From assembly GCA_963753495.1 (NCBI GenBank), contig CAVWCO010000025.1, positions 320,223 through 384,222 of the forward strand: a stretch of DNA of 64,000 bases, given 5' to 3'. Of this stretch, positions 3,332-62,400 are shown piece by piece; position 1 is the first letter of the stretch, and the number at the start of each line of letters is the position of its first letter. The position numbers were made by a program, and so were the translations under genes. This DNA comes from an uncultured Bacteroidales bacterium (GTDB taxonomy: Bacteria > Bacteroidota > Bacteroidia > Bacteroidales > VadinHA17). The notes beneath the pieces were generated by a model. The model worked only from the letters and a program-made list of their open reading frames with translations, was not told where the DNA came from and searched no databases.

Positions 3332-4516
3332 GTGACCACCGATTTCTACATAGAAGTAAACAGCCAGCAAAAAAATCATGACGGAGAAAGGATTTGCGGG
3401 GATGTCTTCCTTTACAGGTATATAAAGGAAGAAGACAGGGTAATTGCAGTATTGTCGGATGGAATGGGGAGCGGCGTTAAAGCAAACATACTGGCCACTC
3501 TGACTGCCACAATGGCTATCAATTTCACCCGCGAACACAAGGAAGTCGACCGGATTGCAGAGATAATAATGAATACTCTTCCGGTATGCAGTGAAAGAAA
3601 AATCAGCTACTCAACATTTACCATAGTTGATATCGAAAGCAGCGGCCGGGCAAATATCCTCGAATATGATAATCCGTCAACGATAGTATTAAGGGGAAAA
3701 GAGATATTCGATCCCTCCTGGAAAAATGTGGTCCTCGATAAGGGTAAAAATGCCGGAAAGGTACTCAAATCATGTACTTTCATGCCTGAAAAGGAGGACA
3801 GGATAATCTTCTGCTCCGATGGCGTGGCGCAGAGCGGAATGGGAGGTGAAGAATACCCATTCGGCTGGGGAAGGGATAATGTTGCAACGTATGCATCGTC
3901 GCTCGTTAAAAGCGAGGCATCAATTTCTGCAATAATGCTCTCCGGGAAAATAGTCACGATGGCTCACAAGAACGATATCTATAAAGCAAAGGATGATATC
4001 AGCTGCGCAACAATTTATTTCCGGGAGCCCCGTAAACTACTGATCTGCACTGGTCCTCCGTATGAGAAGGATAAAGACAAGAATCTTGCGTCAAAGGTTA
4101 AAAATTACACGGGAAAAGTTATAATATCCGGCGGCACAACTGCAGATATTGTTGCACGGGAACTGAATAAGGCAATTATCGATGAGCTGATATTTGAAGA
4201 TCCCGAATTACCGCCTGAAAGCTTCATCGACGGTATCGATCTGGTGACAGAAGGGATTCTTACTCTTCAGAAAGTAAATGAGATACTGAAATCGTACAAT
4301 AACAGTGTAAGGCTCGGAAAGGGCCCTGCCGACAAAATAGTAAAGCTCATCATGGAAAGTGATGAGATCCACTTCATTATCGGCACAAAGATCAATGTTG
4401 CCCACCAGGATCCCAATCTTCCTGTTGACCTTGAAATCAGGAGAACGGTTGTGAAACGAATTGCCAGGCTGCTGGAGGAAAAGTGGCTTAAGAAAGTAAG
4501 CTTTGAGTATATCTGA
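3332..4516 (+). CDS. PP2C-family (SpoIIE/RsbU-like) serine phosphatase with an uncharacterised C-terminal alpha/beta domain.
   Basis: VIAVLSDGMGSGVKANILATL and FCSDGVAQSG are PP2C metal-binding boxes. The ORF is intact and 394 aa, uses a GTG start, and lies 16 bp after the HydS-like gene. Confidence 0.75.
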   Translation: MTTDFYIEVNSQQKNHDGERICGDVFLYRYIKEEDRVIAVLSDGMGSGVKANILATLTATMAINFTREHKEVDRIAEIIMNTLPVCSERKISYSTFTIVDIESSGRANILEYDNPSTIVLRGKEIFDPSWKNVVLDKGKNAGKVLKSCTFMPEKEDRIIFCSDGVAQSGMGGEEYPFGWGRDNVATYASSLVKSEASISAIMLSGKIVTMAHKNDIYKAKDDISCATIYFREPRKLLICTGPPYEKDKDKNLASKVKNYTGKVIISGGTTADIVARELNKAIIDELIFEDPELPPESFIDGIDLVTEGILTLQKVNEILKSYNNSVRLGKGPADKIVKLIMESDEIHFIIGTKINVAHQDPNLPVDLEIRRTVVKRIARLLEEKWLKKVSFEYI

Positions 4517-4552
4517 TTTAGGATTAGCAGTTTTGAGAAAGCAATAATCCAT

Positions 4553-4824
4553 TAACCGCAAAGCGCACAAAGTCATCGCAAAGTCACACACCCATCAATG
4601 AAATATGGGAACATCAATAAAAATAACTTTTAGTTACACAGAGTTCCACAGAGAAGTCACAGAGACACACAGAGTTAAGAAATCAATTCTCTGTGGATCT
4701 CTGTGAACCTCTGTGATTCTCTGTGTAAGTTCTTATATTAGTTATATAGAGTACTCTAAGTTAAATCCTTAAACATCACACCTTTGGGATCTTTGCGTAA
4801 ATCCTTTGCGAACTTTGCGGTTAA
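4553..4824. repeat. Nested compound hairpin repeat element. Outer arms of tandem CGCAAAG/CACAAAG units (4553-4590 and 4786-4824) enclose an inner hairpin of 4x tandem CACAGAG units (4634-4728).
   Basis: Read directly from the sequence. The left inner arm is TTACACAGAG TTCCACAGAG AAGTCACAGAG ACACACAGAG, the loop is ttaagaaatcaatt, and the right arm is CTCTGTGGAT CTCTGTGAAC CTCTGTGATT CTCTGTGTAA. The outer left arm TTAACCGCAAAGCGCACAAAGTCATCGCAAAG is mirrored by CTTTGCGTAAATCCTTTGCGAACTTTGCGGTTAA. The element sits between the convergent PP2C and NUDIX genes. Confidence 0.75.
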
Positions 4825-4857
4825 ACAAGGCTGAATCACTTACTCCATATTTATTTC

Positions 4858-5304
4858 TCAGCTGTATTCTTTCGTTTTTAAATAATCTAATACCCTATTG
4901 TATAAATGAGGCTGTATATCAGGATGGGTAAGGTTTTCAGGCAGTGAATCCATCATCTTCACTTCTGCAATTTCCGATATATCAGGTATCGGACCGAGTT
5001 TGGAAATATCGGCAAAATAGAGCCGTCCAAATCCGGTTTCACCATCCTTCAGTACTGAATATGTTGCCACGCATTCGATCTTAAAATCAACAGCACCCGT
5101 TTCTTCCGCCAGTTCCCTTTCTGCAGCTTCATCAGCAGTTTCGTTTTCCTCTATATGTCCTCCCGGAATTTCCCATGTATTACGCTTATGATGACGCACA
5201 TACAACCAGTTATGATTATATCTGGCAGCAATTACAGCATAAGTGAGTTTGATATCAGGAGTAAAAGAGGGATTATAGAATTTAACTTCAGTCATCTTTT
5301 TCAA
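4858..5304 (-). CDS. NUDIX hydrolase.
   Basis: The Nudix box is GGHIEENETADEAAERELAEETG (GX5EX7REUXEEXGU). The ORF is intact at 148 aa. Confidence 0.85.
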   Translation of the reverse strand: MKKMTEVKFYNPSFTPDIKLTYAVIAARYNHNWLYVRHHKRNTWEIPGGHIEENETADEAAERELAEETGAVDFKIECVATYSVLKDGETGFGRLYFADISKLGPIPDISEIAEVKMMDSLPENLTHPDIQPHLYNRVLDYLKTKEYS

Positions 5305-5378
5305 TTAAACCATCAGCTAATGTAGTGAATATCGCTGTAAATAATTATTAATTACATTTACCTTGTAAAATTCATAGA

Positions 5379-5475
5379 CTTTGTGAGTCCTTCGTGTAAA
5401 CCTTTGTGTGACTTTGTGGTAAAAAAGAATTTAACCACAAAGGATCTCAAAGGCTGTCACTAAGTAACACAAAGG
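5379..5475. repeat. Hairpin repeat element, CTTTGTG/CACAAAG variant, with 4 tandem units per arm.
   Basis: The left arm is CTTTGTGAGTCCTTCGTGTAAACCTTTGTGTGACTTTGTGG, the loop is taaaaaagaatttaa, and the right arm is CCACAAAGGATCTCAAAGGCTGTCACTAAGTAACACAAAGG. It lies in the divergent region between the NUDIX and metallophosphoesterase genes. Confidence 0.65.
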
Positions 5476-5533
5476 AATACAATAAATTAAGCATATTTAT
5501 GAATTAAACAAATTACATATTAAAGATCCCAGG

Positions 5534-6712
5534 ATGGTACTTTTCTTCATTCTGATTACAACTGAAATACTGACACTCATTGTCATCAGCAACCATTTTT
5601 ACGACAAATCATGGATGCAGTATTATTTCATCGTTATCCTGAATACGGTATTAAGCATATGGCTCTGGATATTATGGTTTGAATATGTATCATACGACGG
5701 AATATTTGATACAGCTGAGCATCAATGGTTGTTTATGAATCTTACCGGGATGGTGTGTGCTGTGTTTGTTCCCAGGATTCTTCTGATCATCTTTCATTTC
5801 ACAGGATGGTTTTCCGGAAGAAAACAGGGAGTTCACAGAAGGGCGCTTACAAATGCAGGATTTATAATATATGCCATAATATTCCTGGTTATTGCCACCG
5901 GTACACTGTTCAGCCGGTTCAATTTCAAGACTGAAAATATCTCCGTTAAAATCAAAGGTTTAAAACAGGATCTTGATGGCCTGAAAATAGTCCAGATATC
6001 GGATCTTCACCTTGCTTCATTTTATCATCACCAGGAGCTTCTTGAAGAAGTGATGACAAAGATCAATGAACTTAAACCTGATATTCTCATCAATACCGGT
6101 GATTTTATAACCATAGGCTGGCGTGAATTCATCGGGTTTGATACAATCCTGGATAAAGCAAAAAGCAAGTATGGAAACTACGCAGTGATGGGTAACCATG
6201 ATTTCGGCACCTATAATCCCTACTTTACAGAGGCTGATCTGGATAATAATGTTCTGCTGATGAATAAGTTTATTGCTTCCTCAGGTTATCATGTCCTGAA
6301 CGATGAATCTGCCATGGTTAATATCAGGAATTCAAGGATTGCTGTGATTGGGGTAATGACCAGAGGTTCCTTCCCGGAAATTATCCATAGCGATCTGAGC
6401 AAGGCATACAGCGGAACCGACAGCGCTGATTTAAAGATACTTCTGGCGCACGATCCAAACCAGTGGGAAAAAGATGTGGAAGGAAAAACGGATATTGATA
6501 TCACTCTTTCAGGCCATACTCACGGAATGCAGATGGGCATCCTTACAAAAAGAGTGAAATGGAGCCCGGCGCGTCATTTTTATCCTAACTGGAACGGACT
6601 CTATAAGAGGGGTGAGCAATATCTGATCGTTAACCGTGGCCTTGGAGTGCTTGCCATACCGTTCAGGATATGGATGCCACCGGAGATTACAGTAATAACA
6701 CTTATCGATTAG
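5534..6712 (+). CDS. Membrane-anchored calcineurin-like metallophosphoesterase.
   Basis: An N-terminal hydrophobic region of several TM helices is followed by the motifs IVQISDLH, NTGDF, GNHDF and GHTHG. The ORF is intact at 392 aa. Confidence 0.8.
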   Translation: MVLFFILITTEILTLIVISNHFYDKSWMQYYFIVILNTVLSIWLWILWFEYVSYDGIFDTAEHQWLFMNLTGMVCAVFVPRILLIIFHFTGWFSGRKQGVHRRALTNAGFIIYAIIFLVIATGTLFSRFNFKTENISVKIKGLKQDLDGLKIVQISDLHLASFYHHQELLEEVMTKINELKPDILINTGDFITIGWREFIGFDTILDKAKSKYGNYAVMGNHDFGTYNPYFTEADLDNNVLLMNKFIASSGYHVLNDESAMVNIRNSRIAVIGVMTRGSFPEIIHSDLSKAYSGTDSADLKILLAHDPNQWEKDVEGKTDIDITLSGHTHGMQMGILTKRVKWSPARHFYPNWNGLYKRGEQYLIVNRGLGVLAIPFRIWMPPEITVITLID

Positions 6713-9242: not shown

Positions 9243-9330
9243 GTTACACAGAGGTCCACAGAGGATACACGGAGGTCCACAGAGCATTTCCTCGGTGGAA
9301 CTCTGTGACTTCTCTGTGATCTCTGTGTAA
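9243..9330. repeat. Hairpin repeat element, CACAGAG/CACGGAG variant, with 4 tandem units per arm.
   Basis: TTACACAGAG GTCCACAGAG GATACACGGAG GTCCACAGAG, loop catttcctcg, then GTGGAACTCTGTGAC TTCTCTGTGA TCTCTGTGTAA. It lies between the convergent YgjP-like and MBL genes. Confidence 0.7.
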
Positions 9331-10839: not shown

Positions 10840-12203
10840 TCATCTGAAAAACAGTGATAAAATTAAAGTAAAAATAAGCCCGCTTACCGCTATTATGGTT
10901 TCCATCACAGTCCATGACTGAAGTGTCTGTTTCTCATTCATTCCCAGGTATTTGCCTACTATCCAGAAACCGCTGTCATTAACATGCGACAGGATAGTGG
11001 CTCCTGCTGCAATTGCGATAACGATAAGTGCAATATTCGGCTTGGTCAAGATTAAACGATGAGAGTAGCGGCGACATTATACCTGCCGCCGTTATCATTG
11101 CGACAGTCGCAGAACCCTGTGTTACTCTTACAAGAGCTGAAAGAACCCATGCCAGAACCAGTAAAGGGATTGAAGAATCAGCCAGCGATTCTGCAAGCAT
11201 TTTACCAATACCGCTGTCAACAAGTATCTGCTTTAATACCCCTCCTGCTCCTGTAACAAGGATAATTATACCTGCCGGTCCAAGGGCTTTTGTGCTAAGG
11301 TCCAGTATTGTCTGGCCCGACATTTTTCTTTTCAGGCAAACAGAATAGACAAGAGAGTGGCAAGTAATAAGAGCGGTAAACGGATGGCCAATAAAAATCA
11401 GAAGATCACTAAAAAATGAGTTTTTCATCCATCCTTTGTCAACTCCAAGTTTGATAAATGTGCTCATTACGATGAGCAACAGAGGAGTCAATATTAATGA
11501 CCGCAATTACTCCGAAGGACGGCAATTTTTTAATGTCATCGCCTGGTTCGGTCCCTGAATCCTGGAATAAATCAGGAGCAGGTAAATAGATTTTCCCTGC
11601 AATAAACTTTCCAAAGACAGGACCGGCAACAACAGCGGTAGGAAGACCTACAATAAGACCCATCATTACCACCCATCCAAGGTCAACGCCAAGTATTTCT
11701 CCAACTGCCATTGGTCCCGGAGTCGGCGGCACCATTGTATGTGTCACTGCCAGACCTGCAAGAAGCGGGATCGCATAATAAAGTAAAGAGCGCTTTGTAT
11801 CTTTGGTTAAAGCATAAACAATAGGTACCAGGATAATGAATCCAACATCAAGAAAAATAGGTATCCCGACAATAAACCCTGTCAGCATCAATGCCCATGA
11901 TGCTCTATTGGTTCCGAATTTTTTCAGAAGATAATTTGCGAGAGATTTCGCACCTCCTGAACTTTCAAGCATCTGTCCGAAAATAGCTCCGAGTCCGACC
12001 ACTGTTGCCACAAACCCCAGAGTGCTTCCCATGCCTTCCTGGATACTTGCAGAAATATTCTGCAAAGGCATCCCGGCCATTATTCCGACAATAATTGATG
12101 TAATGAGCAGTGCAATAAAAGCGCTTAGTTTGAATTTAAGCACCATTAACAGGAGTAATGTTACTCCTGCTACTACTATAAGGATTATATATGGAGCTGA
12201 CAT
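10840..12203 (-). CDS. GntP-family gluconate/sugar-acid permease, split into 3 ORFs.
   Basis: ORFs 11439..12203, 10979..11506 and 10840..11049 are consecutive parts of one GntP-like transporter, with breaks near 11440-11500 and 11030. Confidence 0.75.
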
Positions 12204-19378: not shown

Positions 19379-19384
19379 TTAGGA

Positions 19385-19417
19385 TAAAAGACAAAAGATA
19401 AAAGACAAAAGACAAAG
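19385..19417. repeat. Tandem heptamer array (AAAGACA/AAAGATA) x4 abutting the SpmA/B start codon.
   Basis: aaaagacaaaagataaaagacaaaagacaaag begins 6 bp after the minus-strand ATG at 19378. Confidence 0.5.
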
Positions 19418-19429
19418 AAAAATCAATAA

Positions 19430-19514
19430 CCACGGGGTTACACGGAGTCAAAACGCGGAGTGGCACGGAGTTAAAACTCAGTGAAACTTAGATTAACTCT
19501 GTGAAACTCCGTGG
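19430..19514. repeat. Hairpin repeat element, CACGGAG variant, in the divergent promoter region.
   Basis: CCACGGGGTTACACGGAGTCAAAACGCGGAGTGGCACGGAG, loop ttaaaactcagtgaaacttagattaa, then CTCTGTGAAACTCCGTGG. Confidence 0.6.
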
Positions 19515-19525
19515 TAAAAAAAAGA

Positions 19526-21788: not shown

Positions 21789-21879
21789 CCTCTGTGTAAC
21801 TCTTGCCTCTCTGTGTACTCTGTGTAACAGAATTTATAAACTTTCACTGAGTCACAGAGGATCACAGAGAGACACAGAG
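21789..21879. repeat. Hairpin repeat element, CACAGAG variant, 3 units per arm.
   Basis: CTCTGTGTAAC TCTTGCCTCTCTGTGTA CTCTGTGTAAC, a loop, then GTCACAGAG GATCACAGAGA GACACAGAG. It lies between the tandem minus-strand GH29 and DUF1080 genes. Confidence 0.65.
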
Positions 21880-25331: not shown

Positions 25332-26609
25332 TTGGATATTAGATTTTCCACTCTCCCCTCATAGGCTGGATTAATAAGCCTGTTAGCTCCATCATCATCG
25401 ATAAACTGCTGTTTTACAGGATCATATTTAAGGTTTCTGCCAAGACGCAATGCAATTATTCCAAGGTTTACTATTGAACACGATCTGTGTCCGTTCGATT
25501 CATTAAGAGCAAATTTCTTCCTTGTCATTACTGATTCGGTGAAAGTCAGTAATCTGAGGTTCAGGATCAGGAAGCGAATTAATAAGCTTCTCCATATCTT
25601 TTATATCTGACCTGAAACCTTTAAAGACCTTTCCTTTAGGCCCTTCAATATATGCGGCATCCTTATCGCGGTTTTCACCATCGAGGATAATCTGACATCC
25701 GTCAGCATATGTATAAGTTATCCTTCTCCACGATCCGACTGCATCATAATGCTGCTGCGGTGCATCTATTTCAACAGAAACAGGTCCTGTATCATCCTTG
25801 CCAAGCATATATTGAACAGGATCGAGATAATGCTGTCCCATATCGCCCAGTCCTCCTCCGTCGTAATCCCAGTATCCCCTGAATTTTGAATGTACCCTTT
25901 CGGGATTATATGGTTTGTAAGGAGCCGGTCCAAGCCAGAAATCATAATCGAGCTCAGCCGGAACAGTCACGGCTTGAGGTTATAGAGGCCGCTCCAGTAG
26001 AATTTCCAGTCGTATCCGGTAATCCCGCTTACGGTTACTTTCAACGGCCATCCCAGCACTCCGCTGTCGACAAGTTTTTTCAGCGGTTTGACTGTAGTTC
26101 CCAAGTCCATAAAACTGGTCCTTAAATCTGAACCAGGTATTAAGCCTGAACATCCTGCCGTTTCTCTGAACAGCCTCAACAACTTTTATCCCTTCACCTA
26201 TTGTCCGGGTCATTGGCTTTTCGCACCAGATATCTTTCCCTGCTTCTGCGGCCATTTTTGAAATTATTCCATGCCAGTGAGGAGGTGTTGCAATATGGAC
26301 AATATCAATTTCCGGCCGTGCAAGCAGTTCACGAAAGTCGTGATAGCCGTTGATCTTTCCTCCTGCCAGTGCAATTGCCTGTTCAAGATGATTCTTATCG
26401 ACATCGCAGACAGCCAGAAGACGTGTTCCTTCATAATCAAAATGCCCGCGGCCCATTCCGCCAACCCCGATGATACCTTTTGTAAGCTGATCACTTGGGG
26501 CTGTATATCCCTGTCCTCCAAGCACATGCCTTGGAACTATTGTAAAAGCAATTGCGGCTGCAGTGCTCTTTTTAAGAAAATCACGCCTGTCCAGATTGTT
26601 CTTTTTCAT
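25319..26609 (-). CDS. Twin-arginine-signal Gfo/Idh/MocA oxidoreductase (glycoside 3-dehydrogenase-like), split into 3 ORFs.
   Basis: The N-terminus is MKKNNLDRRDFLKKSTAAAIAF (TAT motif). The Rossmann and C-terminal domains are in 25980..26609, 25503..25970 and 25319..25528. Confidence 0.75.
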
Positions 26610-26644: not shown

Positions 26645-27789
26645 TTCAGGCAGTAAATTGAAACTGCCCAAAGATAGACCATGCAGGCGATCAGAATTGA
26701 CATCCCTAATGCAATGCTGCTGATGTCGCTTACCCAGCCTACAAGAAGAGGGATAACTGCCCCTCCTGAGATAGCCATCATGACCAGTCCTGAAATTTCA
26801 TTGCTTTGAGAGGGAATTTTTCAACAGCCAGAGAAAATACCAGCGGCCAGATATTTGCAACTGCCAGTCCGATAAGGAAGACAAGTACCCATGCCATAGC
26901 ATCTGATTTCACCAGGATTATGGCTGCCAGACAAATAATTCCAAGAAGGGAAGTCCACATAAAGAACTTACGGGATGAAATTCTTGTAAGCATTATTGCT
27001 CCTGCAAAGGTACCCAGCATACGTCCAAGGAAGTAAACGCTGCGTCCCGATTCGGCAGCAGTCTGATCAATGCCGAACTGTTTGATCAGGAACTGGCCTG
27101 AATTGGAATTGAATCCAACATCCACACCGACTACCAGAAATATTGAAAGGACCATCAGCAGAACAAATCCATTTCCCAGGAGCTTAAAAGATGAGGCAAA
27201 TGTTGCTTTATATCCCTCAACCCTTGTTTCTTCAATCTTTGAAGAGCCAAGCCACAGTACCGAAAGGATCGAGACAATTCCGAAAACAAGGAAAAGCAGT
27301 TTCCAGTCACCAAACTGAGCTGCAAAGAATGCTGCAAGTGGTGCTCCTATCATCGATCCTATTGCTTTCACAAACTGTGAAAAGCTCAGGAAACTTGATG
27401 CCCTGTTACCCGGGACAACATCAACCATCAAGGGATTGGCCGAGACCTGAACAATTGTATTTCCTATTCCGAGAAGTGCAAATCCTACCAGGACCATCGC
27501 GAAATGTATAAAAGAAGAAAGGGACCAGCAATCCCAGGGCGGTTACTCCCATTCCGATATTCAGCATGTTCTTTTTGCCCAGCCGCGACTGGAGAACACC
27601 TACCGGGACCGAGAGGATAAAGAACCAGAGAAATGCTGCTGAGGGTATCAGCTGAGCCACAGTTGCGCTGAGGCTCATATCCTTGCTTACACGGTCAACA
27701 CCGATACCTACCAGATCGACAAAGCTCATGACAAAAAATGCCATAAGCACAGGTGATATTTTTGAAATGTTAATTTTTTCTGTGGCCAT
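26645..27789 (-). CDS. MFS sugar transporter (FucP-like), with frame breaks near 27490 and 26800.
   Basis: ORFs 27421..27789 and 26778..27497, plus a C-terminal tail in the adjacent frame to about 26645. Confidence 0.7.
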
Positions 27790-29070: not shown

Positions 29071-30380
29071 ATGCCTAAAGTTACAAAGGAAGATGCACTT
29101 CTCTATCACAGCAGAGGACGTCATGGTAAAATTGAGGTGATACCTACAAAACCTTACTGCACGCAGTACGATCTGAGTCTTGCATATACTCCGGGTGTGG
29201 CATATCCATGCCTGGAAATAGAAAAAACACCGGATGATGTTTACAATTATACTGCCAAGGGAAATCTTGTGGCGGTCATTTCAAACGGAACAGCAGTTCT
29301 GGGGCTTGGTGATATAGGTGCAATGGCAGGGAAGCCGGTAATGGAAGGCAAAGGCCTGCTTTTCAAGGTATTTGCAGATGTTGATGTATTTGATATTGAA
29401 GTTGATGAGAAGGATCCTGATAAGCTGGTTGAGATATGTGCCAGGATAGCTCCAACTTTCGGTGGCATAAATCTTGAAGATATAAAAGCTCCGGAATGTT
29501 TTGAGGTAGAGTCGAAACTGAAGAGAATGCTGGATATTCCGGTATTTCACGATGATCAGCATGGAACTGCAATAATTTCCGGAGCCGGACTTATTAAATT
29601 CACTTGAGATTACAGGAAGGAAGATTGAAAATCTAAAACTGGTTGTTTGCGGAGCAGGTGCTGCTGCCATTTCATGTTCAAGGCTCTATGTGTCGCTTGG
29701 AGTAAGGAAAGAGAATATTGTGATGGTCGACAGCAAAGGGGTAATCAACAGAAAAAGAAAGGACCTGAACAAATACAAGCAGGAATTCATTACCGACAGG
29801 GATATTGATACCCTTGCAGAAGCAGTTAAAGGTGCTGATCTTTTTCTTGGACTTTCGACAGCCAATATGATGTCGAAAGAGATGCTTGCATCGATGGCTG
29901 ACAATCCGATTGTATTTGCAATGGCAAATCCTAATCCGGAGATTACATATGAGGATGCAATGGCAACCAGGAATGACCTGATTTTTGCGACCGGAAGATC
30001 AGATTATCCGAATCAGATAAACAATGTTCTCGGATTTCCCTATATTTTCAGGGGTGCGCTCGATGTAAGGGCAACAACAATAAATGAAGAAATGAAGCTG
30101 GCTGCATCCAAAGCGCTTGCAGCACTTGCCAAAGAACCTGTTCCGGATTCAGTTCTGAAAGCCTATAATGTTGAAAGCTATGAGTTTCGGAAAGGATTAT
30201 ATTATTCCAAAACCCCTTGATCCGCGTCTGATTTCATGTGTGGCATCATGTGTTGCAAAGGCAGCTATTGATACAGGAGTTGCACGGCGTCCGATAACTG
30301 ACTGGGAGGCATACAGGAAGAGCCTTGATAAAAGGTTAAGCGTTCATATTAAAAAGGTCGGAGAACTAAGTGAGTTCTAA
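29071..30380 (+). CDS. NAD(P)-dependent malic enzyme, malic-enzyme domain only, split into 3 ORFs.
   Basis: [17 protein letters not shown] and the NAD-binding GAGAAA motif appear across 29071..29607, 29690..30220 and 30168..30380. Confidence 0.8.
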
Positions 30381-32897: not shown

Positions 32898-35283
32898 TCA
32901 TACACTGTTCATTTCCTCATGTTCCGTCCTGTTGATGATCTCATTCTGAAGATCTTCCCCAAGATCGTTGAAATAATCGCTGTATCCTGCAACCCTTACA
33001 ATCAGATCCCTGTATAATTCAGGATGCTTCTGTGCATCCTTCAGTGTTTCGGCATTGACAACATTGAACTGGATATGATGCCCATCGAGACTGAAATAGC
33101 TTCGGATAAGTGCAGTAAGACAATTATAGCTATCTTCATCTTCAAAAAACTGAGGTGAGAATTTCTGATTCAGAAGTGTTCCTCCTGTGCGAAGATGATC
33201 AATCTTTGAAGCTGATTTAATAACAGAAGTCGGTCCGTGATTGTCAACACCCTGAAATGGAGAAATCCCTTCCGAAAGAGGAGTGAATGCTTTTCTTCCG
33301 TCGGCAGTGGCTCCTGTAACACTTCCAAAATAAACATGAGATGTTGTCGGAAGCATATTAATCCGGTGAACTCCTCCCCTTGTATATGGCCTGCCGTTAA
33401 CTGCATCATAATAAATCTCAAAAACCGTAACAGCCTGCTGATCAGCATAATCATCATCATTACCATATTTGGGAGTATTATAAATCAGATCATATCTGCA
33501 TCTGTTCATATCCCTTAAAATCAGCATTCAAGAGCTTTATTAACTCATTCCAGCTGATATTTCTTCTTATCATAAATATTATACCTGATTGAAGTCAGCA
33601 TATCTGTAATACTCCCAAGACCGACTCCCTGAATATAAGAAGTATTATATCTTGCGCCTCCGTTGTTATAATCCTTGCCGTTCAGAATACAATCTTCAAC
33701 AAGCAGCGAAAGAAACGGAACAGGCAGCCATCTTGCAAAAGTCTTTTCAATTACATTATTCCCTCTTATTTTAATATCGGCAAAATAGTTAACCTGTGAT
33801 CTGAATGCTTCAATCAGATCATCAAAAGTTTTAAAATCAGCATGCATAACCTGTCTCCAGTCCGACCTGTTTGTTCTGTCCTCTTATCAAATCCGTTATT
33901 CAGGGTCAGTTCAAGAATTTTCGGAAGGTTGAAATAACCTGTAAGCCAGTATGCTTCAGTTCCGAAAGCTCCTGTTTCAACACATCCTGATGCTCCGCCG
34001 TTCCGGGCATCGACAATATTCTTACCCTGCCTGAGCAAGTTCCTGAATTATTGCATCAGTATTAAAGCATGATGGCTGTCCGAAGCCTGTCCTTATAATA
34101 TCAAGTGCCTTATGAATGAACCTGTCGGGACTTTTTTTGCTGATCTGAACCATTGAACTTGGCTGAAGTATCCTCATCTCCTTAATAACATCAAGAAGAA
34201 TATATGACATTTCATTAACAGCATCAGTTCCGTCAGGTTTAACTCCGCCAAGATTAATCAGACAGAAATCGGTATAAGTATTGCTTTCACTTGCAGTAAC
34301 TCCCATTTTAGGAGGAGAAGGATGGTTATTGAATTTAACCCAGAAACAACCAAGAAGATCATACAGTTCTTCATCTGAAAGAGTTCCTGCTTCCTTCTCT
34401 TTCTTATAAACAGGATAAAGATGCTGGTCAAGCCTTCCGGGATTGAAAGAATCCCATGGATTAAGTTCAGTTATGACACCCAGATGAATAAACCAGTAAT
34501 GCTGAAGCATTTCATGAACAGTTTCAGGAGCATGGGCAGGCACTTTCCGGCATACAGCAGCCATTTTCAAAAGTTCGTCTTCCTTGTTCGGATCGTTTCT
34601 CAGCAGCTGCAAGTCTTTCAAGTTCATCAGCATGCCGGTCTGCATACATTATAATTGCATCGCAGGCAATATCCATAGCCTTGAGTTCTTCAGACTTTTC
34701 AAAAGCTTCATTATCGTTAAAAAAATCAAGTCTTGAGATAGCTTTCCTTATTTCTTCCTTTAAGCTGAAGAAATCCTGTTTTGAACATTTTATAACCCAG
34801 AACAGTATGTCCCGGAGCCCGCTGTTCCTGGAATTCGGTGAAGATGCCGGCATTATAGGCATTAAGCCATTCAGGTGTCATAAGGCTCATTATCCTGTCG
34901 CGGTTGCTTTTTCCTTTCCAGAAAGGAATGATCTCTTCTTCATAAATCTTTCTTGACTTCATCATCAACTCTGAAAAATACTTTTTCCCTTGAATCAAGT
35001 ATTTCAAGATCCTTCAGTGAATGAAGGCTTATTTCGGGATAAGTAGGAGTCTCCTTTGGAGCAGGGCCTCTCTCTCCCACAATAAGTTCACCTTCATTAA
35101 TACATATCTTCTTGTTTTTCAGAAGATATTCAAATGCCTTTGCTCTTTTGACCGGAGCTGAAAATTCGCGGGCTTCATCGCTTTTATAAAATCGGGTGAT
35201 AAGCAAAGCCCTTTCGGCCTGATCTTTTCAACTGCATTAAGGCTCTGTTCCCTTAATTTTTTAACTCTTTCAGATAGTATCAT
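32898..35283 (-). pseudogene. Glycyl-radical enzyme of the PFL2/glycerol-dehydratase family (includes CutC-, HypD- and PD-dehydratase-like enzymes), broken into at least 7 ORFs.
   Basis: The glycyl-radical motif is RVAGYS (33000s). The catalytic loop is GGASGCVETG (33960s). FTEFQEQRAPGH and GFGQPSCFNTD are also present. The pieces are 34940..35206, 34726..35007, 34524..34862, 34022..34645, 33814..34038, 33545..33847 and 32898..33527. Confidence 0.7.
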
Positions 35284-36777: not shown

Positions 36778-36826
36778 ACCTTTGTGATACATTGTGAGGC
36801 ACTTTGTGGTCCTTTGTGGTTCAATG
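36778..36826. repeat. Half-element of the heptamer repeat family, 4x tandem CTTTGTG-type units with no clear partner arm.
   Basis: aaCCTTTGTGATACATTGTGAGGCACTTTGTGGTCCTTTGTGGttcaatg. It lies about 100 bp upstream of the M3 peptidase start. Confidence 0.5.
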
Positions 36827-36923: not shown

Positions 36924-39031
36924 ATGAAAAAAACTGTTCTTCTTATTGCAATTGTTACCATGGTATTAACTTCATGCAAACAAAAAGTGAAAAGTGATAA
37001 TCCGTTACTCAATGAATTTGAAACCCCATTCGGGGTTCCTCCGTTTGAACTTATAAAAGCTTCTCATTTTATGCCGGCATATCTGAAGGCTTTTGAAGAG
37101 CAGAAAAAAGAAGTACGTAAAATAATAACCAATAAACAGGCACCTGATTTTGAAAACACAATAAAAGCCCTTGAATACAGCAGTGAGCTCCTGACAAAAG
37201 TCAGCAGGGTCTTCGGTTCACTTAACTCAGCCAATACAAATGATTCATTACAGGCTATAAATCTGGAGATTGCACCTCTTTCATCAAAGCACAGGGACGA
37301 TATCAACCTGAATGACACACTTTTTCAGAAAGTTAAATCGGTTTATGAAAACAAGGATAATTTCAAGCTTACAGAAGAGGAACAGAAGGTGCTTGAAGAT
37401 ACATATAAAGGATTTGTAAGGAACGGGGCCGGGTTATCGCCGGAAGATAAGACCAAGCTCAGAAAGATAAACGAAGAGCTGTCGCTTCTCTCAGTGAAGT
37501 TCGGTCAGAATCTACTGGCTGAAACCAATGCTTTCAAACTGATTATTGATAAAGAGGAGGACCTGGCCGGATTGCCCGAAGGAGTTATTGCACAGGCAGC
37601 ATCAGCAGCTGAAAAAATGAATCTCAACGGGAAGTGGGTATTTACAATTCAGTATCCGATAATGGAACCATTCCTTAAGTATTCTGAAAAGCGTGAGCTG
37701 AGGGAAAAGCTCTTTACAGCATATTTCATGAAAGGAGATAATGGCAACGAAAAGGACAATAATGAAATTATATCCAGGATTGCAAAACTCAGGATTGAAA
37801 GATCTATACTTCTCGGATATAAAAGCTATTCGGATTTTGCCCTTGAAAGAACAATGGCAAAAACTCCTGAAAGGGTAATGGATTTCCTGGGTCAGGTTTG
37901 GAATGCGGCTTTGCCTGTTGCAAAAGCGGAAGCTTTGGCCCAGCAGGAACTTATTGATAGGGAGGGAGGTAAATTTCAAACTTCAGCCCTGGGACTGGTG
38001 GTATTACACCGAAAAGATCAAGAAGGAGAAGTATGCACTTGATGATGAGATGATCAGACCATATTTCAGGACGGAAAATGTTATTGATGGAATGTTTTAT
38101 GTCGCTAACCGGCTTTATAACCTCAGTTTTACAAAAAGGACCGATATCCCGAAATATCATCCGGATGTTGTCACATTTGAAGTGACCCGCGATAATGAGC
38201 ATGTAGGAATCCTGATGATAGATAACTACCCGCGTGCCTCAAAACGTGAACGGAGCATGGTGCGGAGCATACAGAGGGCAGAGCCGCGACATTAAAGGCA
38301 ATATGATTCATCCTGTGGTCACAATGGTTACAAACTCAACTCCCCCGACAGCCGACAAACCTTCACTTCTTACACCTGATGAAGCAAGCACTCTCTTTCA
38401 TGAGTTCGGACATGCGCTTCATCAGCTTCTTTCAAACTCAACTTACCCGGGCGTTTCAGGAACGTCTGTTGCGCGCGATTTTGTCGAGCTGCCCTCACAG
38501 ATAATGGAACACTGGGTGCTTGAACCGGAGGTGCTTAAGGTTTATGCAAAACACTATCAGACAGGAGAAATAATTCCGGCTGAAATAATTGAAAAACTTG
38601 ACAAAGCCGGAAAGTTCAATACAGGATTCACAACCGTCGAATTCCTGGCGGCTGCTCTCCTCGATATGGAATATCATATTCTGAATGAACCTGTTGATAT
38701 TAATATACGCGATTTCGAAAAGAAGGCAATGGAAAAATACGGACTTATGCCTGAAATCAAGCCAAGATACAGATCAACATACTTTAACCATATCTGGAGT
38801 TCAGGTTATGCCTCAGGCTATTACAGCTATTACTGGAGCGAAATGCTTGATGCTGATGCCTTCCAGGCGTTTAGGGAGACAGGCGATATTTTTAACAGGG
38901 AAGTTGCCGGCCGATTTGAAAAAGAGATCCTCTCAAGAGGAGGTTCAAGGGATCCACTTGACATGTATATCGCTTTCAGGGGAAAAGAACCCGGAATTGA
39001 CGCCCTGCTGGAAAACAGAGGTCTGAAATGA
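36924..39031 (+). CDS. M3-family peptidyl-dipeptidase Dcp / oligopeptidase A-like lipoprotein, split into 3 ORFs.
   Basis: Signal MKKTVLLIAIVTMVLTSCK. The HEXXH motif is HEFGHALH in 38234..39031. Pieces are 36924..38042, 37903..38295 and 38234..39031. Confidence 0.8.
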
Positions 39032-49585: not shown

Positions 49586-51750
49586 CTATTCTATAATTGT
49601 CATCTCATCCAGGAGATACCCGGCACCTGCGAATTTGTCGATAATAAATAAGGCAAATCTTATATCGAGGCTTATATTACGGCTCTGATCAGGATTAAAA
49701 GCCATATCACTGGCGACCCCTTCCCATGCCCTGTCAAAATTAATACCTATCAGGTAACCCTCGGCATTTATAACCGGGCTCCCGGAATTTCCTCCGGTAG
49801 TGTGGTTGTTTGCAATAAAACAAACAGGTACCTCTCCATCCTGTGCATAACGTCCAAAATCGCGTTTTGCATACAATTCCTTCAACCTGTCCGGAACATC
49901 ATAGTCATAAATTTCAGGATTATCCTTTTCAATTATACCCTTAAGAGTTGAAACAGGTTTGAAGTAAACAGCATCCTTTGAATAGTATCCCTGTATGGTC
50001 CCAAAAGCGACCCTGAGGGTTGAATTGGCATCAGGATAGAAAACTTTTTCGCTCTCATATTCCATCTGCGCTTTCATGTATCTTTTGTTAAGCTTTTGCA
50101 ATTCTCCGTTTAGCCTTATCAGCTCTGGTCTTACATTGACTGTCAGAAATAATGCTGCATCGAGCGAAAGAGAATAAAACGGATCCCTTTTCAATTTCTT
50201 AACCGATGATTTGTTGAAATCTTTAATGAATGCAACATATCTTTGCTCATCAGCAAATGGTGTAATGCTGTATATTTTGGATGCAATACCGGAAAAATCC
50301 CCTTTGTACTTATTCTTAAGTTTCAGATATCCGGGAGAAAGCCATTTTTCATCAAGCGATTCTCCATACATATTCATCATGGCAACAAACAGTTTCTGAT
50401 CAGTCTCCTTATTATAATCCTTGAAAAACTGACCGGCATCTTCAATAAGTTTATCCTTCAATTTTTGAATATCTTCAGCCTGCTGCATCGTTCTCATACA
50501 TATCTGCCAGCTCTCTGGTTCTTCTTGACAATGCAAATGCCTCAACACCATTAATTACTTCATTTGTGAAGCTGTTGACAAGGGTGTATTCCTTAAGATT
50601 GTCATATATTTCCCTGTAAGCAGGAAGGATATCCCCGTAATCTGCTTTCCTTTTTACATCCGAATCGATCCATTGAGTCAGTTCCGCTTCAAACTCCTGC
50701 TTTTTGCCGATGGTATTCATCCTTTCAAGTCCCTGGATCTCCCCTATCCACTTTTTCCATGAATTGGAAATACCGGCTTTCTTTGCAGAATACTGTATCC
50801 TGATCAGCGGATCGGAGTTCATTGCCTCATCAATGATCTCAATCTTTTTCGACCTGATACTGATCATTTTCGGATTAATATAGTTTTTAACCATATCAAT
50901 ATGAAATGAGGGGACATATTCAGAAGTAGAACCCGGATAACCAAATACCATTGTAAAATCACCCTCTTTGACACCCTTCAGGGAGATTGGAAAATAATAT
51001 GCAGGTTTGTATGGCACATTATCAGCCGAATAATCGGCTGGCTGGTTATTGGTGTCTGCATAAACCCTGAACAGGGAAAAATCACCTGTATGCCGCGGCC
51101 AAATCCAGTTATCAGTATCACCGCCGAACTTGCCGATTGATGAAGGCGGGGCTCCAACAAGCCTGACATCCCTGAAAGTCTCATTCACAAACAAAAAATA
51201 CTGATTACCCATAAAAAACGGCCGTACTGACGCTTTGTAACCAGTACCTTCAACCGCCTGTTTCACAATATTTTCAATATTTGCTGAAATAAGATTTTCG
51301 CGGTCCGGCGATGGCATATCGTCAGAGACACCCGAAAGAACTCTTGTAGTGACATCTTCCATCCATTTCAAAAGTGTTACAGTATACTCCGGGATTGGGA
51401 AGCTCTTCTTTTCCTGACATTGCCCAGAAGCCATTTGTGAGATAATCATTTTCAAGGCTCGAATGTTCCTGTATCTGTCCGTAGCCACAATGGTGATTGG
51501 TTATCAGAAGTCCTTCTGCTGAAATAAGTTCCGCTGTGCAGCCTCCGTTGAAATTTACGACAGCATCTTTCATGCAGGCTCTGTTTACACTGTAAATATC
51601 CTCAGCAGAGAGCTTAAAGCCTTTTTCCTGCATCAGCTTAATATTGTATTTTTCAATAAGCAGAGGTATCCAGATACCTTCATCAGGAGGTGTTGAAAAT
51701 CCGGACAAAGTAACTAAAAGCAATGTGGATGCTAGCAGTATTTTTTTCAT
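49586..51750 (-). CDS. S46-family dipeptidyl-peptidase (DPP7/DPP11-like), split into 3 ORFs.
   Basis: GGCTAELISAEGLLITNHHCGYG in 51322..51750. The Ser-protease C-terminal domain is in 49586..50551, with the middle part in 50475..51488. Confidence 0.8.
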
Positions 51751-51823: not shown

Positions 51824-52442
51824 TTAAATCCCCTTCAGGGGGTTGGGGGCGATAAATTTATGTAATTCATGGTAAACCTGTTCAACCGGCAGACCCATGA
51901 CATTAAAATATGATCCTTCAATATGACTGCACGCCGCAAGGCCGATCCATTCCTGTATGCCGTATGCTCCAGCTTTATCATAGGGTCTGAAGCTATCGAC
52001 ATAATATTCAATTTCGTCGTTTGTCAGCTCTGAAAATGTCACCTTTGTTGAAGAAAAAAAAGATACAAACTTCGACTTTGACAGACAGACATACTCCGGT
52101 TATAACTCTATGTGTATTTCCTGATATTTCCTTAAGAATTTTAATGGCATCATCCCTGCCGGCAGGCTTATCAAGGACTTTATTCTTACACCACACAATT
52201 GTATCGGCAGTAATCACAATCTCATTATCCCTTATCCCGGACCTGAAAGTTCTGGCTTTTGACCTTGCCACATAAAGAGCAATCTCTTCACCTTTGAGAT
52301 GTGAGGGATATTCTTCGGTCCAGTCCCTGACCTCAACTTCAAAATTCAGTCCCAGATCCTTCAGAAGCTGCTTTCTCCGGGGAGAACGGGAAGCAAGTAT
52401 TATTCTGTACTTATTGATATCCTCAATTCCCATATCAGACAA
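51824..52442 (-). CDS. maf: Maf-like nucleoside-triphosphate pyrophosphatase with a frame break near 52030.
   Basis: ILASRSPRR...ADTIV in 52008..52442. The C-terminal YGIQEWIG motif is in 51824..52042. Confidence 0.8.
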
Positions 52443-53428
52443 GATTCTGGTCCAGGATCACTTTTACAACTACTGAATAAAGAACACCCGCGACCATGAT
52501 GATCTTCATTATCCTGCTTGCATTATGAAGCTGCTTTTTATTGACACTGACAATTAACTGATATACCACAAATAATAAAGGAATTACAATTGCGCAGGAA
52601 ATATAAATCAATGTAATCCTGTCATTCAGGAAAAAATACCATACAACATAGAGCAATCCGGCAGTTATGAGGATCAGCAGAATGGAAATAATCCTTGCAG
52701 TCAGGGTTCCGGTCACCACAGGGATTGTATTTCTTCCATAAGCCATATCACCTTCAAAGTCTTCAATATCCTTTATTATTTCCCTTGTCAGGGTTGTCAG
52801 AAAAGCAAATATTGCAAAACCACCTGTCCAGTAAAAGAGAAGCCCCAGCTGAGGCGGAGTCACTGTGTTTATGGCATAATACCTGTAGAGTGCAGGCCAC
52901 TCATATACAACCACCATCATCGGAACCATCGCTGTAAGCAGTGCAACTACAATGTTCCCGATCAGAAACTGCCTTTTATAGCTTGCTGAATAAAAGTAGA
53001 GCAAGCCCGGAGACGATCAGAAAAAGAATCCCCATCCAGAAATATCCGGCTTTCCAGGAGATATAAAATCCTGCCGCTACACCAGTCGAATTTAAAATAT
53101 TATGCCACATCATTGCCTGGCGCCTGGGAATTTTCGTTCCTACAATTACTTCTCCCCTGTTAATCAGATCGGTTTTAATGTCGAAGTAGTCGTTTATAAC
53201 ATATCCGCCGGCAGTAATGGAGAGCGTTGCAAAAACAAGTATCAGAAAATCGTACCATGGAAATTTAAGTGTCAATGTAACTTCTTCCTCAAATCCATTG
53301 TTCAGGACGACAGTAATCCTGTTGATCAAAGGTTCGATTACGGCATATCTCATCAGGATCATTGTCAGAGCAACAATGAGAAGATTAGGCCATCTGATGA
53401 GATTAAGAAAAGCTTTCATCGCTACCAT
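52435..53428 (-). CDS. UbiA-family prenyltransferase with a frame break near 52990.
   Basis: The NDYFDIKTD motif and a polytopic membrane profile across 52976..53428 and 52435..53004. Confidence 0.7.
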
Positions 53429-59428: not shown

Positions 59429-62400
59429 TCAATCAAGAATAACACTTAATCCCAGTCCCCTTAGCTCATGCAGCAAAACGTTCAATGATTCCGGAATACC
59501 GGGTTGAGGCATAGGTTCGCCTTTCACAATTGATTCATATGCTTTTGCACGGCCTATGACATCGTCTGACTTAATGGTGAGTATCTCCTGGAGTATATGT
59601 GCGGCTCCGAATGCTTCGAGCGCCCATACTTCCATTTCACCGAATCGCTGGCCTCCGAACTGTGCCTTCCCGCCAAGCGGCTGCTGTGTAATAAGCGAGT
59701 ATGGTCCGATGGAACGCGCATGCATTTTATCATCAACCATATGTCCCAGTTTAAGCATGTATATAACACCAACCGTTGCAGGCTGGTCGAATCTTTCACC
59801 GGTGCCACCGTCATAAAGGTAGGTTTTACCATATTTCGGTAATTTCGCCTTTTCGGTATATTCGGTTATCTGCTCAATAGTGGCTCCATCGAAGATAGGT
59901 GTTGAGAACTGAAGACCAAGCTTCTGTCCTGCCCATCCCAGAACTGTTTCGTAGATCTGCCCGAGGTTCATCCTTGAAGGCACACCCAGAGGATTGAGAA
60001 CTATATCAACAGGTGTGCCATCCTCAAGGAAAGGCATGTCTTCCTGGCGCACAATTCTTGCGACAATCCCTTTGTTACCATGGCGGCCTGCCATCTTATC
60101 ACCAACTTTTACCTTACGCTTTTTGGCAATATAGACTTTGGCCAGGCGAACAATACCTGCAGGAAGCTCATCACCTATGGTAATATTGTATTTCTTACGT
60201 TTGAAGACGCCATCGATCTCCTTATACTTAATTACATAATTATGAAGCAGCTGCTTTATGCTGTCGTTCTTCTTCTTGTCGGTGGTCCACTTACTGGGAT
60301 TTATATTGAGGAAATCTATCTCCTGAAGCTGTTTCAGGGTGAATTTGCTTCCTTTAGGGATAACATCAACATTCAGATAGTCTTTCACTCCCTGTGAAGT
60401 CTTTCCGTTTACCAGTATAAATAGCTTATCGACCAGTCTTGATTTTAGTTCCTCAGCGCTCTTGTTGAAATCATTTTCGATTTTGTCGAGCAGGGGTTTC
60501 TCAACAGCTTTTGCTTTCCTGTCCTTTATTGCCCTGGTAAACAGTTTCTTATCAATTACCACACCTTCAAGCGAAGGTCCTGCCTTCAGAGAAGCATCCT
60601 TAACATCACCGGCTTTGTCGCCAAAGATCGCACGAAGCAGTTTTTCTTCAGGTGAAGGGTCCGATTCTCCTTTGGGAGTAATTTTTCCTATCAGGATATC
60701 GCCCGGTATAATATGAGCTCCGACCCTTATAAGGCCGTTTTCGTCAAGGTGTTTCGTGGCCTCTTCGCTGACGTTTGGAATATCAGAAGTCAATTCTTCA
60801 AGTCCGCGCTTTGTATCACGTACCTCAAGAAGGTATTCATCAATATGCACTGAAGTGAACATATCCTCCTCAACAACTTTTTCGGATATAACTATCGCAT
60901 CCTCAAAATTGTATCCTTTCCATGGCATGAATGCCACTTTGAGGTTTCTGCCAAGGGCGAGCTCTCCGTTTTTGGTCCCGTAGCCCTCTGTTAAGAACCT
61001 GTCCTTTTGATACTTTTTCACCCTTCTTAACAACCGGAACGAGGTTGATACATGTATTCTGGTTCGTTTTCCTGTATTTTGGAAGGACATACCGTCTTAT
61101 ATCATCATCGAAGCTGACAAATTTCTCTTCATCAGTTCGGGTATAGCGGACAACAATTTCATTTGAATCGACATATTCCACCACACCATCTCCTTCAGCG
61201 GCATAAAGAATCCTGCTGTCTCTTATCACCTGTCCTTCAAGACCGGTACCGACTATTGGGGCCTCCGGATTAATCAGCGGAACAGCCTGACGCATCATGT
61301 TCGATCCCATAAGAGCCCTGTTGGCATCGTCGTGTTCAAGGAAAGGTATCAGTGATGCAGCAATAGAAGCGATCTGGTTCGGGGCAACGTCCATAAGATC
61401 AACTTTTGTTACTTCCTCGAACGGGTAATCAGCCTCATATCTGCATTTTGCCCTTGGATTCTCAAAATTCCCGTCTTTTAGCAGAGGGGCATTTGCCTGG
61501 GCTATCATTTTCTCTTCTTCCTCCTCAGCACTCAGCCATACAATTCCGTCTTCACTGAAATCGACCTTTGCATTGTTAACTTTAAGGTAAGGTGTTTCAA
61601 TAAATCCCAGGTCGTTTATTTTGGCATAAACGCAAAGTGATGAAATAAGACCGATGTTTGGTCCTTCAGGGGTTTCAATCGGGCAAAGCCGTCCATAATG
61701 GGTATAGTGAACGTCCCTGACTTCAAATCCTGCTCTTTCGCGCGACAGACCTCCGGGTCCGAGGGCTGACATACGGCGCTTGTGCGTCATTTCGGCCAGC
61801 GGGTTGGTCTGATCCATAAACTGCGAGAGCTGATTTGTCCCGAAGAATGAATTGATAACAGAAGAGAGTGTTTTTGAATTAATCAGATCAACAGGTGTAA
61901 ACACCTCATTATCCCTTACATTCATTCTTTCCCGGATGGTGCGTGCCATACGTGCCAGGCCGACGCCAAACTGAGCATATAACTGTTCTCCTACTGTACG
62001 TACTCTCCTGTTGCTTAGGTGGTCAATATCGTCGATATCGGTTTTGGAGTTTATAAGCTCAATCAGGTAACCGATAATTTTAATAATATCTTCCTTTGTA
62101 AGGATCTTAACGTTCATCTCGGTATTGAGGCCGAGCTTTTTGTTTATCCTGTAACGGCCCACTTCACCAAGGTCATATCTCTTATCTGAAAAGAAAAGTT
62201 TGTCGATAACATCCCTGGCTGTTGCCTCATCGGGCGGTTCAGCATTGCGAAGCTGCCGATAGATATAGATAACTGCCTCTTTTTCAGAGTTGCACGGATC
62301 TTTCTGAAGTGTATTGTATATTATGGCAAAATCCGAAAGGGTGGAGTCCTCCCTGTGAAGGAGGATTGCTTTTGCACCTGAATCAACTATCATATCGACA

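Follow-up and report, generated by a model that had tools for sequence, protein, structure and literature searches.

Repetitive extragenic palindromic (REP) sequences of Proteobacteria, together with the bacterial interspersed mosaic elements (BIMEs) that they compose, have been reported inside other small palindromes, can give stop codons to neighbouring open reading frames (ORFs) and are documented targets of insertion sequences (PMC3733652). In the Bacteroidales, BrickBuilt, a MITE (miniature inverted-repeat transposable element) from Porphyromonas gingivalis, is made of 23-nt bricks repeated in direct tandem with no intervening spacers, and also has a leader and a tail (PMC4596501). The heptamer repeat families of Cyanobacteria, Beggiatoaceae and some Bacteroidetes (short tandemly repeated repetitive sequences, STRR; TAACTGA repeats) are contiguous direct repeats, located mostly just upstream of start codons and only exceptionally arranged in inverted sets (PMC4679880). 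Here we examine a two-level palindrome, hereafter the compound (positions 4552–4824), in a 64,000-nt stretch of DNA (the window, whose coordinates are used throughout) from contig CAVWCO010000025.1 (GCA_963753495.1) of an uncultured Bacteroidales bacterium of the VadinHA17 lineage. Uncultured Bacteroidales of this kind abound in wetlands, sediments and digesters, and their non-coding DNA has hardly been studied.

The reading that we prefer, with a probability of roughly 0.6, is that both levels of the compound are members of a single dispersed family of intergenic repeats, the inner inserted in an arm of the outer, and that the family has a REP-like hairpin role. The comparison draws on 160 related loci (designated L plus a number) that carry orthologues of the upstream gene and were fetched from genome and metagenome collections. 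Together with the window they make up the 1.2 Mb in which family members were counted by a regular-expression search.

Anatomy and origin of the compound element

The compound lies between a phosphatase gene and a NUDIX hydrolase gene that converge on it, and its outer element begins 35 nt past the phosphatase stop codon. Its parts and flanks are as follows.

3332–4516, plus strand: SpoIIE/PP2C-type phosphatase gene (Pfam PF07228, E = 5.7e-09), the upstream flank
4552–4585, no strand assigned: outer element, left arm; TTAAC followed by units F1 CGCAAAG (4557), F2 CACAAAG (4566) and F3 CGCAAAG (4577)
4586–4753, plus strand: the 168-nt block read as inserted
4634–4674, plus strand: inner element, left arm; TTA followed by four CACAGAG units (4637, 4647, 4658, 4668)
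4675–4688, plus strand: inner loop of 14 nt, TTAAGAAATCAATT; the copy in L003 keeps TTAAGAAATCACAT
4689–4728, plus strand: inner element, right arm; four CTCTGTG units (4689, 4699, 4709, 4719) followed by TAA
4729–4740, plus strand: family-specific tail, GTTCTTATATTA, after the TAA at 4726–4728; common to other CACAGAG-type copies
4754–4760, no strand assigned: outer element, displaced left-arm unit 4, CTCTAAG; its equivalent is CGCAAAG in L003 and L155
4761–4781, no strand assigned: outer element, loop
4782–4824, no strand assigned: outer element, right arm; CTTTGGG (4782, degenerate) and CTTTGCG at 4791, 4804 and 4813, followed by GTTAA
4858–5304, minus strand: NUDIX hydrolase gene (Pfam PF00293), the downstream flank; the likely ATG start gives 4858–5295

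Three metagenome contigs (L083, L084 and L085) keep this gene order and carry, in a 179-nt spacer that is homologous throughout, the outer hairpin alone. Their phosphatase shares 95% amino-acid and 85% nucleotide identity with that of the window. The alignment with the window contains a single clean gap of 168 nt, corresponding to window positions 4586–4753, and identity to L083 beside this gap is 77% in the left flank, 82% in the left arm, 81% in the loop, 89% in the right arm and 76% in the right flank. The left arm of L083 reads CGCAACG-CACAAAG-CGCAAAG-TT-CTCTAAG without interruption, and the block therefore sits between left-arm units 3 and 4 and not in the loop. The spacer of L155 likewise has an uninterrupted CGCAAAG hairpin of 4+4 units. 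Thus, the suggestion of the initial annotation that one element had inserted into another is borne out by relatives with a single-level element (L083–L085 and L155), and its placement of the insertion in the loop is not.

The anatomy of both levels was partly anticipated. The inner CACAGAG hairpin at 4634–4728, with four units per arm, agrees with our reading; all 4+4 units are exact, TTA and TAA stand at its ends, and the left-arm units are spaced by 3, 4 and 3 nt. The outer arms had been given three to four units, and the CGCAAAG/CACAAAG units are indeed present, with the fourth left unit (CTCTAAG, 4754–4760) having been missed. The spacers of 45–55 bp described on either side of the inner hairpin proved not to be equivalent. 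On the left, positions 4586–4633 (48 nt) are part of the block; on the right, the block accounts for 4729–4753 (25 nt), and 4754–4781 comprises outer unit 4 and the outer loop. The block is thus composed of 48 nt without family resemblance, the 95-nt hairpin and a 25-nt tail that starts with the TAAGTTCTT motif. AGT is the only sequence shared by its two junctions, and its 48-nt and 25-nt flanks had no match in the 1.2 Mb other than L003.

An inverted-repeat search recovered inverted pairs matching both the outer and the inner arms. Well in excess of chance, the window contains 25 copies of CACAGAG where 5.45 ± 2.5 would be expected, and 100 shuffled sequences never gave as many. For the 296-nt region, the folding energy is -94.8 kcal/mol (z = -8.7) on the plus strand and -104.7 kcal/mol (z = -7.8) on the minus strand, and the inner hairpin folded as DNA gives -28.9 kcal/mol (z = -6.5). 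No Rfam family matched the window at gathering thresholds, and permissive E-values over 4400–5600 returned generic sub-threshold microRNA-hairpin noise only.

We read the event as an insertion because the uninterrupted form has the 4+4 architecture that is standard for the family. A CRCAAAG-type element would first have occupied the phosphatase-NUDIX spacer, and a 168-nt block with a CACAGAG-type hairpin would then have split units 3 and 4 of its left arm. Members of the family would spread by an insertion process whose junctions share only 3–4 nt (AGT in the compound, TTAC in the second copy of the window, described below). Several observations weigh against this reading. The inserted unit is 168 nt and not the 95-nt hairpin alone, which excludes plain cut-and-paste of the hairpin. 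Furthermore, a junction homology of only 3–4 nt fits a microhomology-mediated deletion equally well. Lastly, the closest relatives by genome distance are without both elements and more distant ones have them, a pattern of presence and absence for which the history needs loss, transfer or repeated gain.

A distant locus sharing the block, L003, bears on the direction of the event. Its phosphatase gene is only 79% identical to that of the window at the nucleotide level, and the reverse complement of its spacer is colinear with window positions 4578–4768 over 191 nt (~77% identical, one gap). This stretch has one AAAG-type unit on each side (GGCAAAG-block-CGCAAAG), and the whole arrangement is inverted relative to the flanking genes there. 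The outer arms of L003 are largely gone and the block persists; in forward orientation, its rightmost CTTTGCC unit and tail align with the fourth right-arm unit and tail of the window. A single old insertion may have been followed by inversion between the outer inverted arms and by arm erosion, or two insertions may have hit one and the same target.

If one event underlies both, the insertion predates the split of L083–L085, as would be expected if the compound were the older state and these three contigs had lost the 168-nt block through slippage that the hairpin stimulated between the AGT microhomologies. Palindromes that are long tend to be deleted, and AGT is common to both junctions. Such a deletion would nonetheless have had to restore, to the nucleotide, the standard 4+4 architecture seen in L155 and L083–L085 and in about 25 other copies. 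Moreover, spacer alleles recombine between lineages, so that sharing with L003 need not reflect vertical descent. We consider the loss of the block in L083–L085 unlikely.

A selected, purpose-built double cruciform or two-tier RNA structure is in turn very improbable. The whole region folds much better than shuffled sequence and the compound is identical in a second strain, both of which speak for such a device. Yet L083–L085 and L155 have the outer hairpin only, the outer arms of L003 are largely gone while its block remains, and this is the single such nest in 1.2 Mb. The designed cruciform offered as the alternative in the initial annotation is likewise not supported by the closest relative, L095 (97–99% nucleotide identity), which lacks the nested state and has an unrelated spacer. 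The nested structure itself is ordinary for repeat-rich genomes, a by-product and not a device, and its value lies in providing a dated insertion with known boundaries.

That the compound could be an assembly artefact of a repeat-rich region is hardly conceivable, even though many window genes, including rpoB, are split by frameshifts that suggest uncorrected indel errors in what is probably a long-read assembly. An independently assembled contig from another strain (ena:ERZ25039503:contig_133059, L216) shows 181 differences from the window over 7.2 kb yet none across 4500–4870, confirming the compound as real; its phosphatase and NUDIX proteins are identical to those of the window. The outer part is seen in three short-read contigs (L083–L085), and the inner block with its junctions in L003. 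In addition, the exact NUDIX product was matched in a look-up.

The split genes appear as adjacent ORFs at 10979–12203, 25503–26609, 26778–27789, 29071–30220, 32898–34645, 36924–39031, 49586–51488, 52435–53428 and 59429–63239. They include a GntP permease, a GFO/IDH/MocA oxidoreductase, an MFS transporter, malic enzyme, pyruvate formate-lyase, peptidases M3 and S46, UbiA and even rpoB. The hydrogenase gene is intact in L216 (625 aa). The splits look like uncorrected long-read indel errors and not pseudogenes.

The dispersed family of heptamer arrays

The census recovered 27 paired family elements, all of them between ORFs. Each member consists of two opposed arrays of about four heptamers matching CRCNRAG, with a unit spacing of 9–13 nt (mean about 10.3, with a 21-nt double period) and a total length of 80–110 nt. 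The main sub-types are CACAGAG and CRCAAAG. Elements of the CACAGAG type have the ends TTTT-n-GTTA ... TAAGTTCTT, in which the tail consensus obtained from alignments sets the polarity of the element; those of the CRCAAAG type have the ends TTAAC ... GTTAA, and their polarity could not be fixed because ATCCATTAAC was found on either side. This motif is non-coding on the phosphatase side in the window and in L083–L085. There are two topologies, head-out (the CAC... arm first) and head-in (the CT...GTG arm first). The head-in form looks like a circular permutation of the head-out form, because the conserved 'ends' (GTAAAAAA..TTAAC) fall between its arms.

The window holds seven copies, counting the nested pair as two and a solitary half-array as the seventh. 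Those outside the compound are as follows.

5362–5516 (core 5379–5474), no strand assigned: second family member, head-in; four CTTTGTG units, GTAAAAAAGAATTTAAC, then CACAAAG-type units
9244–9330, plus strand: simple CACAGAG-type copy (CACAGAG ... CTCTGTG) between convergent genes, 20 nt past a stop codon (z = -7.95)
19437–19516, no strand assigned: copy of the CACGGAG/CTCCGTG variant
21790–21879, no strand assigned: head-in copy, CTCTGTG...CACAGAG
36780–36818, no strand assigned: solitary CTTTGTG array that makes up half an element and lacks a partner arm

The first of these occupies the spacer between the NUDIX gene and a metallophosphoesterase gene, which is 57–78 nt long and 'empty' in 88 of 123 relatives. 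In the window and L095, this spacer has a 155-nt insertion (5362–5516) made up of 17 nt, the hairpin and 42 nt, with TTAC at both junctions. Other relatives have an element in the same spacer at a different position or in a different arrangement: a head-in element at another position in six loci (L145, L152, L159, L020, L138 and L032) and a head-out element in two (L022 and L042). Compared by eye without an alignment, the right flanks of the window copy and of L159 are similar (ATTAAGCAT vs ATTAAAGCAT). Judged from these arrangements, the spacer has gained an element at least three or four times independently. Insertion boundaries in the L145 group were too blurred to call a duplication. In L006, L109 and L022, the spacer upstream of the hydrogenase gene carries CACAGAG-type copies and is too diverged for the boundaries of an empty site to be drawn. 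Both insertions that could be measured (168 and 155 nt) exceed the length of their hairpin.

The 155-nt insertion directly follows a TAnnTTTG-like promoter box. This Bacteroidetes-type -7 box (TACATTTAC, TACTTTTA, TACATTTG; window 5345–5361) is conserved in the 88 'empty' loci, where the metallophosphoesterase start follows ~25 nt downstream. The insertion in the window separates box and gene; the hairpin at 5362–5516 may form a transcribed 5' leader, or the promoter may have been displaced.

The family is or was mobile, as had been proposed, with several gains in a spacer that is empty in most relatives. A preference for its own loops, proposed alongside, is not supported, as the 27 elements counted in 1.2 Mb include just one F-F-R-R nest. 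Roughly 60% of the 179-nt spacer is taken up by the outer element, which a random intergenic insertion would therefore often hit. Against an insertion process, Pfam found no transposase or RAYT-like (REP-associated tyrosine transposase) domain in window ORFs of at least 110 aa, the window being 64 kb of a genome of roughly 4–5 Mb. Phosphatase-NUDIX spacers range from 0 to about 350 nt among the relatives and also change as whole units. In L095, with its 97–99% identity to the window in coding DNA, the corresponding spacer (4500–4900) is unrelated and holds CGGCGTG and GCGGATT arrays, and identity drops to 85–90% at 4900–5100, the last ~200 nt of the NUDIX gene. We infer that whole spacer alleles are swapped between strains by homologous recombination, in this case along a tract within one species, which complicates a simple vertical reading of presence and absence.

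Established copies are far better conserved than synonymous sites despite this turnover of spacers. Between the window and L083, identity is 46% at four-fold synonymous sites of the phosphatase gene and 81.5% in the outer element and its flanks; between the window and L003, it is 34% at these sites and 77% in the 191-nt stretch with the block. Similarly, the orthologous head-in elements of L145, L152, L159 and L020 are 84–92% identical in the heptamers and 70–85% elsewhere, and four-fold sites among these loci are 37–49% identical. The difference reflects either purifying selection on the elements or a more recent passage between lineages than that of the surrounding genes.

The family appears to be undescribed. 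A search of the literature on these heptamers and on Bacteroidetes palindromic repeats found no description of it, and blastn of the whole spacer against plasmids and phages gave no match. CACAGAG arrays on viral contigs (54 loci) were rejected as relatives, as nearly all are one-directional, iteron-like and on unrelated contigs of about 50% GC. The only one of them with both orientations is L173 (viral contig IMGVR_UViG_3300001335_000658), a 5-kb contig of 53% GC with a dense field of CACAGAG and CTCTGTG at 10–13-nt spacing (2078–2500). This field looks like an iteron-type origin, and a relation to the Bacteroidales family is improbable. Three further candidates were set aside as single resemblances with no further support: DnaA boxes (TTAACCACA vs TTATCCACA), Bacteroidetes promoter boxes, and an IS608-type TTAC target.

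Intergenic spacers in this clade are filled by several small hairpin-repeat families, which turn over by insertion and spacer swapping and which nest. For example, an 18-nt perfect palindrome, TCCCGATAGCTATCGGGA, stands exactly between heptamer units in L109 (577–674), L139 (about 1855–2008) and L159 (1440–1511) and occurs free in the phosphatase-NUDIX spacers of L006 and L017; it would appear to be a further mobile palindrome, of very small size, nested in the CRCNRAG family. In L139, the right arm is broken by a CCCACC...GGTGGG hairpin. As a general feature, nesting is frequent in this clade.

Other repeats accompany the family. Hairpin clusters of GGTGCTCTGCACC occupy the phosphatase-NUDIX spacer of L024, L059, L065, L072, L118, L121, L124, L126, L145, L146 and L152, with GAAATATTTGTAG flanking them on one strand. 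They are GTAG-tagged, BIME-like REP clusters, and the separate repeat in related loci, GGTGCAGAGCACC...GAAATATTTGTAG, carries GTAG. Because such clusters are present, the clade probably also has a RAYT-type system. G-rich tandem arrays with a period of 8–9 nt (CGGCGTG, GGTGCGGG, CAGGCGAC, GGCGCAAC and others) start at the phosphatase stop codon in L010, L033, L056, L058, L074, L080, L081, L082, L091, L094, L095 and L096; they differ between close relatives and are C-rich and G-poor on the NUDIX-sense strand. Two further hairpin families, GCGGATTT/AAATCCGC (period 8, with a perfect GGATTTAAATCC centre) and AAGACAAA/TTTGTCTT (period 7), occur in the spacers of L087, L089, L092, L095, L071 and L007, in L125 and L129, and at window positions 19383–19416, where a half copy of the period-7 family adjoins the 19437 element.

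Proposed roles: transcribed hairpins or protein-binding arrays

For copies between convergent genes we favour, weakly, a role as transcribed REP-like hairpins. The phosphatase-NUDIX spacer would be transcribed from the convergent genes, and the arrays would then fold into long bulged hairpins able to block 3' exonucleases or read-through, as REP and BIME sequences do in enterobacteria. The elements would be tolerated, and probably kept, owing to this role, and nesting would have no function of its own. Consistent with a hairpin, the folding z of every copy falls between -5 and -8, the two arms of an element agree in sub-type, and units that deviate are mirrored (aGCAAAG / CTTTGCt in L155). In CACAGAG-type copies, G.U pairs also join the spacers on the strand that has the U-rich tail (13 G.U vs 5 A.C), a weak asymmetry.

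Several observations run counter to an RNA hairpin. About a quarter of the loci have a phosphatase-NUDIX spacer of 12 nt or less, and copies are also found between divergent genes. Position 4 of the heptamer varies and is usually non-complementary between paired units, in which no compensatory changes were seen. A consensus terminator scan at the compound returned no canonical site; the tails are only AU-rich (TAAGTTCTTATATT), and an intrinsic terminator has a short GC-rich stem-loop with a U tract directly behind it. Folding energies and G.U counts on both strands revealed no consistent strand preference across the family. The spacers of CRCAAAG-type copies are unpaired yet conserved, and solitary arms persist (window 36780, L138, L032 and L005).

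Many of the same features would be expected if the arrays acted as double-stranded DNA, with phased heptamers on one face of the helix serving as a platform for a sequence-specific protein and the palindromic look arising as a by-product of two opposed arrays. The unit period of about 10.3 nt with its 21-nt double period, the free fourth position of CRCNRAG, the occurrence of both head-out and head-in arrangements, the persistence of solitary arms, the unpaired yet 70–85% conserved spacers of orthologues and the lack of compensatory pairs all point in this direction. It is less easily reconciled with sub-families (AGAG or AAAG; CAC or CGC cores) that keep their arms matched and their deviant units mirrored, or with the G.U-paired spacers that several CACAGAG-type copies have on one strand. 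Furthermore, no candidate protein is known, and hundreds of copies beside unrelated genes are unlike a regulon. On balance, a purely DNA-level role is doubtful.

A broader proposal, quite improbable in our estimate, is that CRCNRAG arrays are genome-wide recognition platforms for a Bacteroidales DNA-binding or folded-RNA-binding protein, retained under purifying selection in hundreds of intergenic regions, with array-bearing modules of ~150–170 nt inserting site-specifically between the units of existing arrays. Site-specific insertion between heptamer units would explain why the window and L003 have the same unit-block-unit junction in opposite orientations.

Whichever role applies, the family is of more interest than the nest, given its phased arrays, permuted form, oversized inserted units and conservation well above neutral.

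Comparison with known repeat systems

With MITEs, the family shares inverted arms that reach the element ends and presence/absence at orthologous sites. Read from the sequence, the 168-nt and 155-nt blocks have no inverted ends beyond the central hairpin. The candidate target duplications, AGT for the 168-nt block and TTAC for the 155-nt block at both junctions, are too short and too few to tell from microhomology, and no autonomous partner element encoding a transposase was found in the window or the fetched loci. One such MITE is BrickBuilt, which is likewise non-coding, intergenic, about 100–170 nt long, bounded by inverted ends and hosted by a member of the Bacteroidales, and which also differs in presence between relatives and contains short internal tandem units (PMC4596501). 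Unlike BrickBuilt, the family is built of 7-nt cores with 2–6-nt spacers in two opposed arrays, and no parent insertion sequence is known.

The heptamer repeat families introduced above (STRR, TAACTGA) resemble the family in being intergenic arrays of a conserved heptamer with a patchy distribution across lineages and a mechanism that is not known. They differ in that CRCNRAG units are 10–11 nt apart and nearly always form opposed arrays.

The insertion in the outer arm also recalls the insertion sequences IS1397, ISKpn1 and ISPpu9/10, which reportedly target REP/BIME palindromes (Tobes and Pareja 2006, cited in PMC3733652). In both cases a mobile element would land in an existing palindromic repeat with a very short duplication, here a putative one, and the window and L003 have the same junction. 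In contrast to these insertion sequences, the block encodes nothing, and there are only two instances, perhaps from one event.

Together with the MITEs, the REP/BIME/REPIN sequences of Proteobacteria are the nearest parallel, with differences in their makeup. The family ends in TTTTnnGTTA / TAAGTTCTT or TTAAC / GTTAA and not in the GTAG/CGTC tag of REPs. Instead of a single palindrome of 20–40 bp, its members are 80–110 nt long, with arms of four phased heptamers and unpaired spacers. Neither is a RAYT transposase linked to it, and the head-in permutation occurs. The likeness lies in short, imperfect palindromes that are intergenic, present in many copies and often located past stop codons between convergent genes; in inverted pairs that form long bulged hairpins; and in mosaic clusters with other repeats. 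In three loci (L032, L119 and L155), the GTTAATGGAT right end of an element doubles, on the opposite strand, as the last codons and stop codon (TAA) of the NUDIX gene. Like REPs, the family is multi-copy and strictly extragenic, with seven copies in 64 kb and 27 of 27 elements between ORFs. The roles proposed for REP sequences include protection of mRNA 3' ends, attenuation and protein binding. In a phylum whose 3'-end formation is poorly understood, the heptamer family is thus a candidate for a REP-like regulatory or structural role.

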